From a phage: a DNA stretch of 64,000 bases. The notes below the pieces were generated by a model that did not search any database, was not told the DNA's origin, and worked only from the letters and a program-made list of their open reading frames with translations. The stretch is taken from the sequence record PV357171.2. One strand, given 5' to 3'. Made by a program: the position numbers and the translations under genes. Positions 2,142 through 54,310 of the stretch are shown here, piece after piece. Within the stretch, counting starts at the first letter, position 1. Each line of letters opens with the position of its first letter.

Positions 2142-5100
2142 ATGACTGATAAGCTAATACGAGAATTACTAATAGACGTTAAACAGAAGGGGGCAACCCG
2201 TACTGCAAAGTCTATTGAAAACGTATCTGATGCATTAGAGAACGCTGCTGCTGCTTCTGAACTAACAAATGAACAGTTAGGTAAAATGCCCAAAACTCTA
2301 TACTCCATTGAGAGGGCAGCAGATAGAGCAGCGAAAAGTCTTACTAAAATGCAAGCTAGCAGAGGTATGCTTAGTATTACTAAATCTATTAATGATATAG
2401 GAGCTAAGTTAGATGATCTCGCTATTACAATGATTGAAGTAGCAGATAAATTAGAAATCGGATTTGATGGAGTTTCTAGATCTGTTAAAACAATGGGCAA
2501 TGATGTTGCAGCTGCAACAGAGAAAGTTCAAGATAGGCTGTATGATACTAATAGAGCCTTAGGTGGTACAGCTAGAGGTTTTAATGATACTACTGGTGCC
2601 GCTGGTAGAGCTTCTAGAGCTATCGGTAATACCTCTGGCTCAGCACGCGGTGCAACTCGTGATTTCGCGGCAATGGCTAAGATAGGGGGTGGTTTACCTA
2701 TCCTGTATGCTGCAATTGCATCTAATATATTTGTTCTTCAGTCCGCTTTTGAGGGCCTAAAAGTAGGTGATCAATTAAACAGACTGGAACATTTTGGCAC
2801 TATCGTTGGGACTATAACGGGTACACCAGTACAGACGTTAGCTCTGGCACTACAAAACGCTACTAACGGTGCTGTATCCTTTGAAGAAGCTATGAGACAA
2901 GCGTCTTCTGCTTCAGCTTATGGATTTGATAGTAAACAATTAGAACAGTTCGGACTAGTAGCCCGTCGTGCTGCTGCTGTTCTTGGTGTTGACATGACCG
3001 ACGCACTTAACCGTGTAATTAAAGGCGTATCTAAGCAAGAAATAGAACTTCTAGACGAACTTGGTGTTACTATTCGCCTTAACGATGCGTATGCAAATTA
3101 TGTTAAACAGCTAAATGCTACCAGTACAGGCATTAAATATACTGTAGATAGCCTGACTACCTACCAGAGACAACAAGCATATGCAAATGAAGTTATAGCA
3201 GAATCTACTAGACGTTTCGGATACCTAGATGATGCTCTTAAGTCAACTTCTTGGGAGCTATTTGCTGCTAATGCTAACTCTGCCCTAAGAAGCCTACAAC
3301 AAAGCGCAGCAACATACTTAACCCCTGTTGTAGACACCATCAATGCTTTCTTATATCAAACTAAATCTTCTCAGATGAGGATTTCCGCAATGGCACGCAG
3401 TGCCTCTGCTAAAACCACTCCTACTGAAAATGTTACGGCTCTCATAGAAAACGCTGTAGGTGCACAAGAAGATCTAGATACTTACCTTAAAGAAAGTGAT
3501 GCTCGTGTTAAGAAAGCTCAAGAGATTAAACAGCAGTTAGATGATCTCAAGGCAAAACAAGCTGTTACTGCTCCAGTAGCTAACGCACTTACTGCTGTGG
3601 GCATTGGAGGCGATGAAAGTAATAAATTAGTAGTACAACTTACTAATGAACTGGCTCGTCAAAACCAAGAAATAGCAGAACGCGCTAAAACCGAAAAAGT
3701 TCTCAAACAAGCAGTGGAAGATACTGGGCAAGCCTTACTGCGTAATAGTAATCTAGCTAAGCAATTAGGAGCCAATATGCAGTATGCTGCCACTGCTATT
3801 CCTGGAGAGACCGGGGTATTTAAGATTGATCCTAATAATCTTAAAGCGGCTGCAGAGGTACAGAAGAACTATGACCAGCTAAAGAAAAGCTCTAGTGATA
3901 CTGCAAATAATATAAAAATGGCAGCTACTAACATTACCACTGCCAAAAAAGCATCAGGTGACTTAGTTAGCATTATAAAAGCAGTAGGAGATACTGCTAA
4001 GGTAACAGGGCAAAATACAGATACTCTAGTTAAAAATCTGAATCTAGGCTTTGAAAATCTAGATCAAATGAAGGCTGCGCAGAAAGGTCTATCAGAATAT
4101 GTAACTGCTATGGATAAGAATGAGCAGAATGCACTGGAAGTAGCTAAACGTAAAGACGAGGTTTATAACCAGACTAAAGACAAAGCTAAAGCGGAGGCAG
4201 CAGCTAGAGAGGTGCTACTACGTCAGCAACAGGAACAGCTCACAGCAGCAAAAGCACTACTGGCTGTTAATCCAAACGATCCAGAGGCTCTAAAGCAGGT
4301 AGCTAAGATAGAAACAGAGATTCTTAATACTAAAGCTCAGGGATTTGAGAACGCTAAGAAAACTAAAGATCTGACAGATAAAATTCTTGGTGTAGATCGT
4401 GAGATAGCTCTCCTGAATGACCGCACTATGACGAGTACTCAGTATCGTCTAGCACAATTAAGGCTAGAGCTACAATTAGAGCAGGAAAAAACGGAATTAT
4501 ATTCTAAACAAGCGGATGGCCAAGCTAAAGCAGAACAGTCTAGACGTGCCCAAGCACAAATAAGTAGAGAACTGTGGGAAGCAGAGAAACAAGCTACTGC
4601 CTCGCATGTGTCAGCTCTCATGGATGCCTTAGAAGTTAACCAAACTCAGAGAAATGTCACTGGTCAATCCCAGATTCTTACTGAAAGGTTATCCATTCTG
4701 CAACAACAGCTGGAGTTGTCTAAAGGTAATACTGAAGAAGAAATTAAATATCGTAATGAGATTTATAAAACTTCAGCAGCCTTAGAACAGCTTAAAAAGC
4801 AAAGAGAGAGTCAGATGCAGCAACAGGTAGGATCTTCATTAGGTGCTGTGTACACTCCTACAACTGGTCTATCTGGGGCAGATAAAGATTTTGCTGATAT
4901 GCAGAATAAGATGGCTTCTTATGACCAGGCTATTTCTAAGCTGTCTGAGTTAAATTCCGAAGCAACAGCTGTAGGTCAAAGCCTTGGTAATTTAACTAAT
5001 GCTATGATTCATTTCTCACGGGGATCTCTAGATACTACGTCTATGATTGCGGCAGGTATGCAAGCTGTATCTTCCGTAATTCAGTATAGTACTAGCCAGC

Positions 5101-11431: not shown

Positions 11432-11854
11432 ATGAGTACTGAAAATAGAGTTATAGACTTAGTAATAGATGAGAAAGTACCATATGGTTTAATGATGCAG
11501 TTCTTAGATGTTGATGATAGTACTTATCCACCTACAAGTACCCCTGTTAACTTAACTGGGTATTCTCTAAGGGGTACTATAAAAAATAGCCTAGATGAGA
11601 ATGCGGAGATATTGGCATCCTTTACTACTAATATTATTGATGCTGCTCAAGGGGCTGTAGCTATAAGTTTACCAGTAGAATCTGTGGAGAATATAGGAGC
11701 TAAAGCATCTAAAGATAGAGATAAATATAATCCTCGTCAGCGATTCGCAGGATACTATGATATAATTATGACTAGAGATGTTATAGGATCTGCAATTAGC
11801 TCCTTTCGTATAATGGAGGGTAAAGTATTTATCAGTGATGGGGTAACTAAATAA
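11432..11854 (+). CDS. collar protein (p132-like, 140 aa)
   Basis: 140-aa ORF immediately upstream of tail-fibre gene. Confidence 0.45.
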
Positions 11855-14202
11855 TGGCAGTAACTACTAAGATTATTGTACAACAGATACTAAATATTGA
11901 TGATACTAAAGCTACTGCTAGTAAATTTCCTAGATATACAGTAACTCTTGGTAACTCTATTAGCTCTATTACTGCAAGTGAGTTAGTATCATCTATTGAG
12001 GCCGCAGCTAAGTCTGCTGCAGCTGCAAAAGACTCTGAAATAGCTGCTAAGACTTCAGAGCTTAATGCTAAGAACTCTGAACAGGAAGCTGCTATTTCTG
12101 CTGGAGCTTCTGAAGCCTCTGCCACTCAGTCCGCTACATCTGCTACTCAATCTGCAGAATCAGCGGATAGATCTGCAGAATCAGCCGCAGCAGCTAAAGT
12201 ATCAGAGACTAATGCGAAAGCTAGTGAAACTAAAGCTAAAACATCCGAGACTAATGCAAAAGCCTCAGAAACTAATGCAAAGTCTAGTGAAACCAAAGCT
12301 AAAACCTCGGAAACTAATGCTAAAACTAGTGAAACCAACGCTGCTGCTTCCGCTGCTGCTGCAAAAATTAGTGAGACTAATGCTAAGACTAGTGAGACTA
12401 ATGCTGCTGAGTCTGCTGCGTCTGCTGCCGATTCTAAAGGTTTTAGGGATGAAGCAGAAACATTTGCTGCACAAGCGGCTGCCTCTGCTGCGGCTGCTAA
12501 AGTATCCGAGACTAAGGCAAAAACATCAGAAACTAATGCAAAGTCTAGCGAAACTAAAGCTAAGGCTAGTGAAACAAATGCTGCTAGTTCTGCAACTTCA
12601 GCTAGTCAATCAGTAACCACTATTCAAGGTCTAAAATCTGACGTTGAGGAATTAAAATCTGATACTCAAACCATAAAGAATAGTGCTGTAACTGAGACAA
12701 CAGCTTTAAAAAATCAAGCGGCTACTTCTGCAACTAATGCTGCTGCATCTGCTACTGAAGCGGGAAAACAAGCTACTAATGCTGCTAATAGTGCTAATAG
12801 TGCTAAAACTGAGGCTGACCGTTCAAAAACTGAAGCTGATCGTGCTAAAGCTGAGGCAGATAGATCTGAAGCCGCTATTAATGATACTCCTGAGCTGCAG
12901 CCGTTACCTGATGTATGGATACCTTTTAATGACTCCTTAGATATGATTACCGGCTTCTCACCTAGCTATAAAAAGATTATAATTGGTGACGATGAAATTA
13001 CAATGCCTGGTGACAAGATTGTTAAGTTTAAACGTGCATCAACTGCGACATATATTAATAAATCCGGCGTTTTCACTGTTGCGGGAATTGATGAACCACG
13101 TTTTGAACGTGATGGTCTGCTTATTGAGGGGCAAAGAACAAACTATATTCTTAACTCCCTTACTGTTTCTAAATGGGGTGCATCTTCGTGGTTGACAATC
13201 TCATCAAGCGGAGTTGATAGCTTTGGTTTTACATATGGCCGATTTGATGTTCAGTCTAGTAATGTTGGAAGCACAACATCCGGTAATATTGCTGTGGCTC
13301 CTTCACCAAGAGCTTTTGACGTTACTGGTGATGAGAAGTATTGCACTATATCTTGCCGATGCAAATGTGAATCAGACATAGATATTCGATGCAGACTCCG
13401 ATTTGAGAACTACGACGGGACTGCCACATCCTTCATTGGCGATGCGTACATGAATATGCAGACTTTAGATATAACAACTACAGGTGGAGCAGCAGGTAGA
13501 ATTACAGCTAAAGCGGTCAAGGATAATGCTACAGGATGGATATTTTTTGAAGCGACAATAAAAGCACTAGATACCGAAAATATGATTGGTGGCCAAGTTC
13601 AGATAGCACCATCTCAAAGAGTTGGATCTTTTGCAGATGGCGATCATATTATTGTTGCAACGCCGCAATTTGAAGGTGGGGCGACTGCATCGTCATTCAT
13701 CATATCTGATACAGTTGCAGCGACAAGGGCTAGCGATATGGTGACAGTGCCAATTAAAAACAATCTTTATAGCTTACCTTTTACGGTTCTTTGTGAGGTA
13801 CATAAGAATTGGTACAAAACACCGAATGCAGCACCGCGAGTTTTTGATACTGCAGGTCATCAAACTGGAGCAGCAATCATTCTTGGATTTGGTTCTTCAA
13901 CAAATTACGATGGGTTTCCATATTGCGATATTGGTGGGTCTAACCGACGTGTTAACGAAAACGCATCGCTTGAAAAAATGGTTATGGGGATGCGTGTGAA
14001 AGAAGATCAGATGACATGTGCGATAAGTAATGGGCGTATATCTAGTGAGACAAAGACAACTTGGACTTATATTCAAAGCTCTGCAACCATTCGTATAGGT
14101 GGTCAGACAACAACAGGGCAGCGTCATTTATTCGGGCATGTCAGAAATTTTCGAGTATGGCATAAAGCATTGACTGACCGTGAATTGAAGGAGTCGGTAT
14201 GA
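11854..14202 (+). CDS. L-shaped tail fibre protein (LtfA-like, 782 aa)
   Basis: Long N-terminal Ala-rich region with tandem heptad repeats SETNAK(A/T/S) and TEADR repeats; C-terminal globular domain; tail-fibre locus. Confidence 0.65.
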   Translation: MAVTTKIIVQQILNIDDTKATASKFPRYTVTLGNSISSITASELVSSIEAAAKSAAAAKDSEIAAKTSELNAKNSEQEAAISAGASEASATQSATSATQSAESADRSAESAAAAKVSETNAKASETKAKTSETNAKASETNAKSSETKAKTSETNAKTSETNAAASAAAAKISETNAKTSETNAAESAASAADSKGFRDEAETFAAQAAASAAAAKVSETKAKTSETNAKSSETKAKASETNAASSATSASQSVTTIQGLKSDVEELKSDTQTIKNSAVTETTALKNQAATSATNAAASATEAGKQATNAANSANSAKTEADRSKTEADRAKAEADRSEAAINDTPELQPLPDVWIPFNDSLDMITGFSPSYKKIIIGDDEITMPGDKIVKFKRASTATYINKSGVFTVAGIDEPRFERDGLLIEGQRTNYILNSLTVSKWGASSWLTISSSGVDSFGFTYGRFDVQSSNVGSTTSGNIAVAPSPRAFDVTGDEKYCTISCRCKCESDIDIRCRLRFENYDGTATSFIGDAYMNMQTLDITTTGGAAGRITAKAVKDNATGWIFFEATIKALDTENMIGGQVQIAPSQRVGSFADGDHIIVATPQFEGGATASSFIISDTVAATRASDMVTVPIKNNLYSLPFTVLCEVHKNWYKTPNAAPRVFDTAGHQTGAAIILGFGSSTNYDGFPYCDIGGSNRRVNENASLEKMVMGMRVKEDQMTCAISNGRISSETKTTWTYIQSSATIRIGGQTTTGQRHLFGHVRNFRVWHKALTDRELKESV
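12186..12600 (+). repeat. imperfect 21-bp tandem repeats inside tail-fibre gene
   Basis: Repeated units of the form AGTGAAACTAATGCTAAAGCT and variants visible directly; in-frame heptad repeats. Confidence 0.7.
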
Positions 14203-14474
14203 AAGACTTAACTATGAAATTTAAGGACAAGAAAGCATTTGAGGATTTTCTTGTGGTTATTGATTGGGAAGGTAATGAAACTTTGCAAAATCAAATAATA
14301 CTTGATGTTATCGGATATACTTATACACAAACTGGTGGCTCAGAGGAAGAGCCCATATATACCCAGAATGGGGGATATTATGTGAACGTAAGGGTTATTG
14401 ATGATTCAATTGACTTCACTCAATACAGTGATCATAGTGTTATTCTTGAACAGTCTCTTAGAGAGTGGGCATAA
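14199..14474 (+). CDS. hypothetical protein
   Basis: 91-aa ORF, ATG overlaps ltfA stop (ATGA). Confidence 0.4.
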   Translation: MKDLTMKFKDKKAFEDFLVVIDWEGNETLQNQIILDVIGYTYTQTGGSEEEPIYTQNGGYYVNVRVIDDSIDFTQYSDHSVILEQSLREWA

Positions 14475-14483
14475 GGTTTTATA

Positions 14484-14648
14484 ATGGTAACTAAAACAGT
14501 AATTCCTACGGATATTACAAAACTTAAAAATGAGTCACTTAATAAAAATAATAACCTGAGTGACTTAGCAGACCGTGCAGCAGCCTGGCTAAATGTGCGT
14601 CCTATTGGGTCCACCCCTCTTGCGGGGGATCCTGTTGGGGGACTATGA
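14484..14648 (+). other. out-of-frame N-terminal segment of second tail-fibre gene; frame break at G5 run 14637-14641
   Basis: ATG at 14484 after AAGG; 54-codon ORF stops at 14646-14648; removing one G from the run fuses it in frame with the 14593..16227 ORF. Confidence 0.6.
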
Positions 14649-16227
14649 TGCCGCAACTAAACGTTGGGTAGAGAATAAGATTAACACTGGTACAGTTGGA
14701 CCCACTATGAATGGTGTTATGAACTACGGTGTTGGTGATTTCCACCTTCGAGATAGCCGTGCATACATTCAACCATACGAGGTGGTTTCTGATGGGCAGC
14801 TCCTTAATAGGGCTGACTGGCCGGAGCTTTGGTCTTACGCTCAAATGGTGGGGGCAATTAGTGATGCAAAATGGTTAGCAGATCCACATGAGAGAGGCAA
14901 ATACTCAGTTGGTGATGGTCGAACAACCTTCCGTGTTCCTGATCGAAATGGTGTTCAATCTGGCTCCTTTAAAGGTCTTTTTGGACGTGGTGATAGTGGG
15001 GTAACTTCTAACCTCGGTAGAACGAATGAGTCTTCTGCTCCTAACTTAACTGCCTACTTCAGAACCGTAACTGATACGTCAATTATTGAAAATGATGCTG
15101 CAAGTGGTGCTGGATACCCATCCGAGGCATACCAAAAATATGCTCGGCTAAGCGCTATTAAAGAAGAGGCTGCACTAGAAATATACCCACGTAGATGGAA
15201 CTTTGATGCTTCTCGCCAATCTAGTGTATATGGGCGTTATGGTAATACAGATGAGATTACACCTAATAACTTCACCGGTGTATGGGTAATCCGGGCGTCT
15301 GGTGGTTTCGTTGCAGCAAATACATCTTGGAGTGTTATTAACGGCGATGCGACCAGACCAACAGACAGCACAAGAGTTGAATCAGGGAAAGTAAGCGTAG
15401 AATATAAGATTGGAACGGCTATTGAGGCGCAGGGTAAAGTCTATACTGCTGCAACAATGGGCGGGACATATTCTACCCAGCTCTCTGTTAAAAATGCCAC
15501 TACGGGTAAAGAGAAAGATATCAGCGTCACAGAAGATGGTGATCTGTGGTCTGACCGCTTTAAGGGTAGATTTGGCACCCGTATGGCTTGGAGTCAGACC
15601 GGCTGGGTCTATGGCACATTTTCCCAAGCCAACCAAGCCATCGGTAACGACTACAGTTTCTACAGTATTCTTAGCGGCTCCCAAAGTTCAAGCTCGGGCT
15701 ATAAAACTCATACCCATATTGGTCAAATCCATAATGACAATGGTTCATTTGCTGATAGCTGCTGGCATGTTGCAGGTGATGATGATAATAAATATGGTGT
15801 ACGTTTAAAAATTCAGCCTAATAATAATAGTATTTATTTCTATTCTTGGTGGCCTAATGGTGCAGCAACCTATACTTTGCAATTAAATGCTATATCTGAT
15901 TCTCGCTTAAAGCATGATATTAAGGCTATAGATGCAACTAAATCCATCGAAATATTAAAAGGATTGGAATTCCAATCCTTTGTATATAATAACGATGAAA
16001 AATCTCGTATCCGACGTGGGGTTATTGCTCAGCAAGTAGAGACTATAGAACCACTTTATGTAAAAACTAGAAGATTTTATAATAATGATGGGGTAGAGCA
16101 AGAACAGAAGGAATTAGATACGACTCCAATGCTTCTTGACACTATGCATGTCGTGCAAGAACTTATAAAACGGATTGAATCTTTGGAAGAAGAACTCAAG
16201 CAATTAAGAGCAAACCTAGTGCAATAA
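14593..16227 (+). CDS. L-shaped tail fibre protein (LtfB-like) with C-terminal S74 intramolecular chaperone domain
   Basis: C-terminal NAISDSRLKHDIKAID motif and coiled-coil tail typical of autoproteolytic chaperone domains of phage fibres; true N-terminus probably at 14484 in another frame. Confidence 0.75.
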   Translation: MCVLLGPPLLRGILLGDYDAATKRWVENKINTGTVGPTMNGVMNYGVGDFHLRDSRAYIQPYEVVSDGQLLNRADWPELWSYAQMVGAISDAKWLADPHERGKYSVGDGRTTFRVPDRNGVQSGSFKGLFGRGDSGVTSNLGRTNESSAPNLTAYFRTVTDTSIIENDAASGAGYPSEAYQKYARLSAIKEEAALEIYPRRWNFDASRQSSVYGRYGNTDEITPNNFTGVWVIRASGGFVAANTSWSVINGDATRPTDSTRVESGKVSVEYKIGTAIEAQGKVYTAATMGGTYSTQLSVKNATTGKEKDISVTEDGDLWSDRFKGRFGTRMAWSQTGWVYGTFSQANQAIGNDYSFYSILSGSQSSSSGYKTHTHIGQIHNDNGSFADSCWHVAGDDDNKYGVRLKIQPNNNSIYFYSWWPNGAATYTLQLNAISDSRLKHDIKAIDATKSIEILKGLEFQSFVYNNDEKSRIRRGVIAQQVETIEPLYVKTRRFYNNDGVEQEQKELDTTPMLLDTMHVVQELIKRIESLEEELKQLRANLVQ

Positions 16228-16237
16228 TGTAAGAAAA

Positions 16238-16270
16238 CCCCAGTGGATTTTGTCCACTGGGGTTTATTAT
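16238..16270. terminator. bidirectional terminator between convergent late and early transcription units
   Basis: 10-bp stem CCCCAGTGGA / TCCACTGGGG, loop TTTTG, flanked by A-run upstream and T-run downstream. Confidence 0.75.
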
Positions 16271-16286
16271 TTATTTGATATGTAGA

Positions 16287-16733
16287 TTATTTATTTCCCG
16301 AACTTCCAAACCCGCCTTCACCACGATCAGTTTCCCCTAGTTCATCAACAATTTCAAAATTATGTGTTGAGTAGTGTGGTACTACTACCAACTGACAAAG
16401 TCTTTCAAAATTCTCCAGAGTTTGCATTTCAGAACCGTAATTATAGAGGTTCATCTTAATAGTACCACGATAGTCTGAGTCGATCACCCCTGCGGTGTTT
16501 GCGATCATCAGATGACGCTTACCTAAAGAGCTGCGAGGAACTACCAAACCGAACCAACCTCGCGGAATTTCTACCGCGACACCGGTGTCAATCATTAAGG
16601 ATTTGCCTGGTGCAATAGCACGTAAATCTGCAGCAGGGTTAGTACCAAAGAATGCTCGCAGATCCATACCTGCGGCATCTTCGGAACCAATCTTAGGCAT
16701 ACAATCTGGATGAGTTAATTTAATTTTAATCAT
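16287..16733 (-). CDS. dut: dUTP pyrophosphatase (dUTPase)
   Basis: 148 aa; motifs RSSLG and GVIDSDYRG characteristic of trimeric dUTPases. Confidence 0.85.
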   Translation of the reverse strand: MIKIKLTHPDCMPKIGSEDAAGMDLRAFFGTNPAADLRAIAPGKSLMIDTGVAVEIPRGWFGLVVPRSSLGKRHLMIANTAGVIDSDYRGTIKMNLYNYGSEMQTLENFERLCQLVVVPHYSTHNFEIVDELGETDRGEGGFGSSGNK

Positions 16734-17605: not shown

Positions 17606-18087
17606 TATTTAATTAAGTCCTCAACAGATGCATGATGTAGCCACGGCTCAAATAAACCAATTACGATTTCCATGTCTTTCTTATTTAACACCATATGGGT
17701 ACGACTCATTAAGTTGTCAACCATCGGGTCTGAGCTATCCAAAGCTATTAACCACTGTCCTCTGTCTTTTTTGAATATTAATGCAGGTTTGGAGTTCATC
17801 TGCTCACCTTCACGTGAGCACTGCTGCCACCACTTCTCTAGGGTGGATTCACCAACATTAAATAAATTACTTGATAATGCGTCGTCTTTATAATGTTTTA
17901 CTTCAAAACAGTACTTACTGATTTTGCCTGTTTGTGGTGGAAGGTAGATGTCACCTTTCAGTCCGTGGCTCTGGCCAAAAGCACCAGAGCCAGGCACTCT
18001 CTCCCACTCTAGCTTTGTTCGCTCTCTAAGAATATCTCTTACTTGATACTCAGCTCTTTTTCCTTTTTCTCTACTATCTACAGCCAT
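17605..18087 (-). CDS. hypothetical protein, possible PD-(D/E)xK nuclease fold
   Basis: 160 aa; D..E.K-like spacing (GDIYLP...FEVKHYK); weak call. Confidence 0.4.
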   Translation of the reverse strand: MAVDSREKGKRAEYQVRDILRERTKLEWERVPGSGAFGQSHGLKGDIYLPPQTGKISKYCFEVKHYKDDALSSNLFNVGESTLEKWWQQCSREGEQMNSKPALIFKKDRGQWLIALDSSDPMVDNLMSRTHMVLNKKDMEIVIGLFEPWLHHASVEDLIK

Positions 18088-18578
18088 TATTCCTCTGGGA
18101 AATTTAATACTGCGAAATCTCCGAAGTATTCTTTTGCTTTAATATCATAGGCTTTTGCCGCAATTTCTTCAGTTGGGTAGCTACCAATATACTCAGTTTT
18201 TCTGCTGAAAGGATTGCCAATTCTAGCGATATAGCTCCTACCATTAAAATGGACTCCTCTAACTGTATTTGGGCTAGACCTATTAGCCATATTCTGGGAT
18301 CTAGAACAGTCTCTCAGATTTTCTATTCTATTATTACTAACATCTCTATCTATATGGTCTATTTCCTTTGGCCAATAATTATTGAACATAAAAAATATCA
18401 GTCTATGAACATACTCTTGCCTCTGGAACAAAGTAACCCTTAGATACCCGGCCTTATTAGGAGTACCTGCAGGTACTCCTGCCTTCATCCTACCCCTAGT
18501 CTGCTTATTTATTAGCAGTCCATCCCTATAATTATATCTATTCCAAAGGTATTCTACAGTAACTCTTGGATCAGCCAT
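18087..18578 (-). CDS. HNH homing endonuclease
   Basis: Motif YL..HRL.F........IDH.D....N...NLR......N shared with five other ORFs in this window. Confidence 0.7.
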   Translation of the reverse strand: MADPRVTVEYLWNRYNYRDGLLINKQTRGRMKAGVPAGTPNKAGYLRVTLFQRQEYVHRLIFFMFNNYWPKEIDHIDRDVSNNRIENLRDCSRSQNMANRSSPNTVRGVHFNGRSYIARIGNPFSRKTEYIGSYPTEEIAAKAYDIKAKEYFGDFAVLNFPEE

Positions 18579-54268: not shown

Positions 54269-54310
54269 TTTAAGTTAGGGGGCGAAAGCCCCTCTTAGTT
54301 TGGAGAAACT

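Follow-up and report, generated by a model that had tools for sequence, protein, structure and literature searches.

The second L-shaped tail-fibre gene of this Tequintavirus (a T5-like phage; sequence record PV357171.2, 64,000 nt, hereafter the window) is a single gene broken by a one-base frame change at a run of G, as comparison with related sequences confirmed. The probable cause, in our assessment, is a real and recent loss-of-function insertion of one G into GGGG, with no decoding signal. The features of the broken gene are as follows.

14473..14476, + strand: AAGG, a Shine-Dalgarno-like motif 7 nt 5' of the true start ATG at 14484
14484..16227, + strand: whole second fibre gene (ltfB position), 1744 nt, one base in excess; 580 aa when repaired
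14484..14648, + strand: 5' fragment, 51 native N-terminal residues and G-G-L, then TGA at 14646-14648
14593..16227, + strand: 544-codon ORF as called mechanically; its first 16 codons (14593-14640) are the native N-terminal region read out of frame
14637..14641, + strand: G5 run with the one-base insertion (alignments, blastn indel list and a regex check on seven loci)
15895..16053, + strand: Peptidase_S74 intramolecular chaperone domain (Pfam PF13884, E = 9.8e-13; residues 471-523 of the repaired protein)

The shorter ORF runs for 54 codons from the ATG at 14484, which is also the start annotated in Salmonella phage SIA3lw and in FGS017, to the TGA, with the translation MVTKTVIPTDITKLKNESLNKNNNLSDLADRAAAWLNVRPIGSTPLAGDPVGGL*. 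The longer ORF (544 codons) lies in the +1 frame, overlaps the shorter one and is back in the native frame from GAC 14641 (Asp53). When one G was deleted from 14637-14641, the two merged into a single ORF of 580 aa (...PLAGDPVGDYDAATKRW...), in which the codons at the run were GTT GGG GAC, encoding Val-Gly-Asp 51-53. The junction of the full-length protein corresponds to the peptide DPVGDYDAATK, and the spanning sequence is ...AGDPVGDYDAATK. A sequence-only reading of the window had described both ORFs and their overlap, the G-run, the AAGG motif and a repaired length of about 580 aa, and all its coordinates were correct.

That reading had also taken the two ORFs to be halves of one fibre gene, and the homology searches bore this out. 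The 54-aa ORF alone matched the tail-fibre family phrog_6921 (E = 2.8e-9), its first 51 residues were identical to the N-terminus of the intact SIA3lw orthologue, and alignment of the gene revealed one extra base. The family match and the identity together indicate that the pair of ORFs is not a chance one. The repaired 580-aa protein matched phrog_6921 over residues 3-577 (E = 1.2e-183). Among the 120 homologues retrieved, 119 matched the first 90 residues, and all 119 were free of gaps across the junction. The same Met start was found in 53 of these 119, whereas in the others the block was internal to a longer fibre. Residues 24-90 (NLSDLADRAAAWLNVRPIGSTPLAGDPV-DYDA-TKRWV...) were almost invariant across homologues, the only variable position in the block being the Gly encoded by the G-run (G/N/S/R/E), and the junction falls inside this block.

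These alignments also bear on the notion that the gene is split, with the 54-aa peptide and a 544-aa protein both made and assembling as two subunits. Both ORFs do begin with ATG, so that gene callers will annotate both, and RefSeq calls a fragment in the related phage VSe12 from the same internal ATG. Yet no homologue was split at the junction, the block interrupted by the break is almost invariant, and for its first 16 codons (MCVLLGPP...) the long ORF is conserved coding sequence read out of frame. Inspection of the sequence upstream of 14593 (GCAGCAGCCTGGCTAA) revealed no Shine-Dalgarno motif. The sequence-only reading had suggested looking for homologues with a contiguous N-terminus, and this N-terminus proved contiguous and highly conserved; a homologue starting near the junction, at the equivalent of 14593, was found in only one record, which is labelled partial. 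The comparison of homologues effectively refutes a split gene.

We then compared the run itself across relatives. SIA3lw and three records without annotation matched the region 14200-16300 at 99.8% identity, each time with one base fewer than the window. In alignments against SIA3lw, FGS017 and S.Hadar 4-5-1, the window carried exactly one extra base, located inside the G-run; the flanking 230 nt were identical to all three apart from one substitution within the run in FGS017. The codons at the run were GTT-GGG-GAC in SIA3lw and S.Hadar 4-5-1, and GTT-GAG-GAC in FGS017. A single intact CDS began at the same ATG in SIA3lw (580 aa) and FGS017 (581 aa). GGGG and an intact gene of 580 aa were present in SIA3lw, two IMG/VR contigs and four Logan contigs, all seven of them independent and nearly identical to the window, and the eighth near-identical genome, FGS017, carried GAGG, also with the gene intact. 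Phage records that fully covered 14484-14760 measured 276 nt over this segment versus 277 nt in the window; the exceptions were VSe12 (277 nt, owing to a separate insertion) and one record of 272 nt. Searches of viral, metagenome and genome contigs with exact and degenerate patterns yielded no match to the G5 allele. The G4 allele, used for comparison, matched three viral and four metagenome contigs. On these comparisons, the insertion is lineage-specific and probably recent.

The sequence-only reading had offered three explanations for the frame change. A sequencing error and a real inactivating indel are both possible; programmed +1 frameshifting and phase variation found no support, since none of the relatives carried G5 and the run is short, at 5 nt.

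Programmed or otherwise useful +1 frameshifting would require the P-site tRNA-Gly, before decoding of GGA, to slip from GGG onto the GGG that overlaps it, so that the full-length fibre is made at a set ratio beside the 54-aa peptide. At GGG-GGA the tRNA could indeed re-pair perfectly after a +1 slip, which would yield exactly the wild-type protein, and upstream, at 14624-14629, there is a G-rich stretch that resembles a Shine-Dalgarno motif (GGGGGA). However, none of the relatives showed the shifted arrangement, and those with 99.8% identity are in frame: the seven close genomes and contigs, the 119 proteins and the phage records with full coverage all lack the two-frame arrangement and are in frame at the run. 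A recoding signal would be conserved, so the missing conservation counts against this explanation. The A site holds neither a stop nor a known hungry codon but a sense codon, with the stop two codons later, and T5-group phages have their own tRNA-Gly(UCC). Between the G-rich stretch and the slip codon there are 8 nt, compared with about 3 nt for the stimulatory stretch in prfB, and the G-rich stretch consists of the conserved Ala-Gly-Asp codons found in every relative. No unusual frameshift-stimulating RNA structure was detected downstream of the run (z = -0.92). We regard programmed frameshifting as extremely unlikely.

Phase variation was considered together with another broken gene of this kind, that of VSe12.

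2487-4230 of locus L009 (NC_048794, Salmonella phage): second fibre gene of VSe12, a broken orthologue with a C4 to C5 insertion

The VSe12 insertion is independent and lies 24 nt upstream of the site in the window. The VSe12 gene contains two more frame switches, near positions 3375 and 3902 of the locus, and RefSeq annotates two fragments in it, one of them from the ATG equivalent to window 14593. No other gene with a frame switch was found in 50 kb of VSe12. The two cases thus share a +1 insertion into a homopolymer of the conserved block, in VSe12 within the sole broken gene of its 50 kb, but differ in that VSe12 combines a C-run with two further frame switches, a multi-hit decay, whereas the window has a single clean insertion. 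The literature mentioning VSe12 does not discuss its broken fibre gene.

If the gene were phase-variable, the C4, G5 and G4 runs within 30 nt would form a reversible switch of the second fibre, with the window and VSe12 both in the off state. Two independent +1 insertions 24 nt apart (G4 to G5 in the window, C4 to C5 in VSe12) could be read in this way; losing side fibres can be advantageous on permissive hosts, and reversion from G5 to G4 would fully restore the gene. Against this, the runs are 4-5 nt long, far short of known hypermutable tracts, which measure roughly 8 nt or more. No length polymorphism was seen among the seven close relatives or in other records, all of which are in frame at this run. 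The runs are also not kept at synonymous sites: FGS017 has GAG, and in the homologous module of DT57C LtfA the peptide is the same but its codons (GGC, GGT, CCG) form no homopolymers. VSe12 carries two further frameshifts and is therefore not in a reversible state. We consider phase variation very unlikely. A more elaborate proposal, in which populations of T5-like phages would use the C4/G5/G4 cluster, a mutational hot spot in the invariant neck block, to switch reversibly between branched and unbranched side fibres while slippage at GGG-GGA would let a trickle of full-length protein through in the off state, has a similarly slim chance of being correct.

The remaining alternative to a real insertion is an artefact: the phage DNA would read GGGG, the extra base would be an over-call of the homopolymer in the consensus, and the gene would really be intact. 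This is possible, though we hold it to be doubtful. The change is a one-base length difference in a homopolymer, a classic type of error, and G5 was seen in no other sequence searched. The gene is otherwise undamaged, with one to three amino-acid differences from intact relatives, and because there is no further damage downstream, a very recent mutation and an artefact fit equally well in this respect. Published records of the T5 group do contain frameshift errors; Ayala et al. flagged one in ltfC of the T5 reference (PMC10713586).

Against an artefact, no other homopolymer-type frameshift was found in the 64 kb, although an error-prone platform should have broken further genes. The window contains 257 homopolymers of at least 5 bases, including 24 A6, 18 T6 and one A7. 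We scanned it with 154 stop-to-stop ORFs from three related loci, seeking adjacent matches in different frames, and no other broken coding sequence was found. The one other frame switch in the scan lay upstream of an annotated start, at a variable intergenic G-run. In the blastn indel list, likewise, no further indel within a long CDS was uncompensated; the remaining lone indels relative to the relatives were intergenic or near ribosome-binding sites. As only this gene was broken in the 154-ORF scan, errors at homopolymers are not a general feature of the assembly. The affected gene also belongs to a kind that is readily lost in culture. We infer that the extra G is present in the phage DNA, beyond the consensus.

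Several differences from relatives were noted elsewhere in the window. At 1214-1219, an A6 run replaces the A5 of SIA3lw, so that the 299-aa tail protein ends in …EIKK* versus …EIKND*; the difference at 1219 also alters the overlap with the ATG of the next gene. Going by the sequences of other T5-like phages, among which both alleles are common, it is a natural polymorphism and no error. At 54270-54300, between two small genes, there is an intergenic G5 (G7 in phage AZ23) with a one-base difference nearby; this looks like a variable terminator or ribosome-binding-site sequence, and no coding region is affected. An ORF of 163 aa at 18087-18578 on the - strand, between D14-like and sbcC-like genes, contains an HNH_3 endonuclease domain (E = 2.3e-14). 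As SIA3lw lacks this segment, the ORF is probably a mobile homing endonuclease.

Around the broken fibre gene, the order is an ltfC-like gene, an ltfA-like gene, a 91-aa ORF, the broken gene, a hairpin and a convergent dUTPase homologue.

11432..11854, + strand: ltfC-like collar protein, 140 aa, intact (PF23926 LtfC, E = 1.7e-14; phrog_34807)
11854..14202, + strand: first L-shaped tail-fibre gene, ltfA-like, 782 aa, intact (phrog_1419, phrog_5481)
14199..14474, + strand: 91-aa ORF between the fibre genes, conserved in relatives (phrog_1361, E = 8.9e-31)
16235..16265, + strand: terminator-like hairpin, 14 pairs with a T-rich tail, directly 3' of the fibre gene
16287-16733, - strand: dUTPase homologue of SIA3lw_00045 (SIA3lw annotation)

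The ltfC-like protein anchors the side fibres to the tail. The N-terminal 190 aa of the LtfA-like protein were 54% identical to DT57C LtfA; a Pfam match, and an S74 chaperone domain in particular, was not found in this 782-aa protein. DT57C lacks the 91-aa ORF, which SIA3lw and FGS017 annotate as a hypothetical protein. The product of this ORF might be an assembly factor of the LtfA-like protein, a candidate role suggested by the lack of an S74 chaperone in the latter. Since the broken gene is the last of its transcription unit and the next gene is on the opposite strand, no polar effect is expected.

Under a real insertion, ribosomes starting at 14484 would stop after 54 codons, having added G-G-L to the 51 native residues. 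The downstream 528 native codons, which comprise the fibre body, the receptor-binding region and the S74 chaperone, would have no separate ribosome-binding site. Production of the second fibre protein would essentially cease, presumably except for what rare spontaneous +1 slips at GGG-GGA provide; such a slip of tRNA-Gly would regenerate the wild-type protein, and there is no sign that it is efficient. Reinitiation after the TGA was considered and rejected: the nearby ATGs at 14645 and 14648 are in the third frame, and the first in-frame ATG, Met75 (14707), has no Shine-Dalgarno motif and would give a product lacking the conserved N-terminal block. The phage should then bear the LtfA-type fibre only. 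Hosts with an O-antigen recognised via the second fibre should be lost, and growth should persist on hosts recognised through LtfA or devoid of O-antigen.

We infer this fibre-loss phenotype by analogy with DT57C/DT571-2, T5-like phages that also have two fibre genes downstream of ltfC but whose LtfB has a different N-terminal adaptor. In these phages, when the second gene is truncated early, one receptor specificity is lost and the phage remains viable (PMC4728585): the ltfB Q45opal mutant of DT571/2 lost only the LtfB-dependent host, and on a rough host about 30% of DT571/2 clones spontaneously lost side-fibre function (Golomidova et al. 2016, PMC4728585). The DT57C order ltfC-ltfA-ltfB-dut likewise places the fibre genes at the end of the tail operon, next to a convergent dut. 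The proteins themselves differ. DT57C LtfB has 788 aa compared with 580 aa in the window, where a part of about 205 aa at the N-terminus is lacking, and the 782-aa LtfA-like partner in the window has a C-terminal half different from that of DT57C LtfA.

Residues 30-576 of the repaired protein aligned to residues 206-786 of DT57C LtfB with 44% identity (E = 2e-139), and residues 1-29 had no counterpart in the first 205 aa of that protein. By this comparison, the first 29 residues are an adaptor differing from that of DT57C LtfB. The distal half of DT57C LtfA was equally similar to the repaired protein (PDB 8hqz_d residues 526-1073, E = 1e-146). The earlier designation of the gene as the second L-shaped tail-fibre gene thus stands; the name LtfB is apt by position, with homology that is only partial (residues 30-576). 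The conserved block NLSDLADRAAAWLNVRPIGSTPLAGDPV was also observed as an internal segment in many longer fibres of phages of roughly 60-77 kb. This, together with the equal similarity to the LtfA distal half and to LtfB, points to a shared and shuffled fibre module with interchangeable N-terminal adaptors.

The closest counterpart with an intact gene is SIA3lw_00044 (1743 nt, 580 aa), which shares 99.8% DNA identity, the start codon and the locus order with the gene in the window, and differs in having GGGG versus GGGGG and in two amino-acid substitutions (N203T, T462I). The SIA3lw orthologue has been detected in purified virions by mass spectrometry, with 20 peptides and 46% coverage (PMC12752171). 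A precedent for the loss itself is provided by lambda PaPa / lambda-WT, in which, compared with Ur-lambda, a frameshift in stf abolishes the side fibres and leaves the phage viable (PMC12617516). There, too, a frameshift removes a dispensable accessory side fibre in a cultured siphophage, but lambda belongs to another phage family, its fibre is unrelated, and its mutation was confirmed in DNA, whereas the evidence here is a consensus sequence only. Hendrix and Duda are said to have reported in 1992 that the lambda stf change was one base and left two adjacent ORFs. In the literature on frameshifts in fibre genes of the T5 group, we found only the note on the T5 ltfC error and the lambda precedent.

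The finding is of an ordinary kind, either a knock-out of the type seen in culture or a base-calling error, and involves no new mechanism. Automatic annotation will call a 544-aa fibre protein with 16 nonsense first residues and a 54-aa hypothetical protein; a better treatment is either to mark the gene as a frameshifted pseudogene or to correct the base. Should the insertion be real, the O-antigen-dependent host range of this isolate is probably narrower than that of its 99.8%-identical relatives, which would be relevant to any use in biocontrol of Salmonella or E. coli. Revertants should be easily selected, as a change from G5 to G4 restores the gene fully. Together with VSe12, the isolate would then provide a further data point for the known loss of accessory fibres in cultured T5-like phages.
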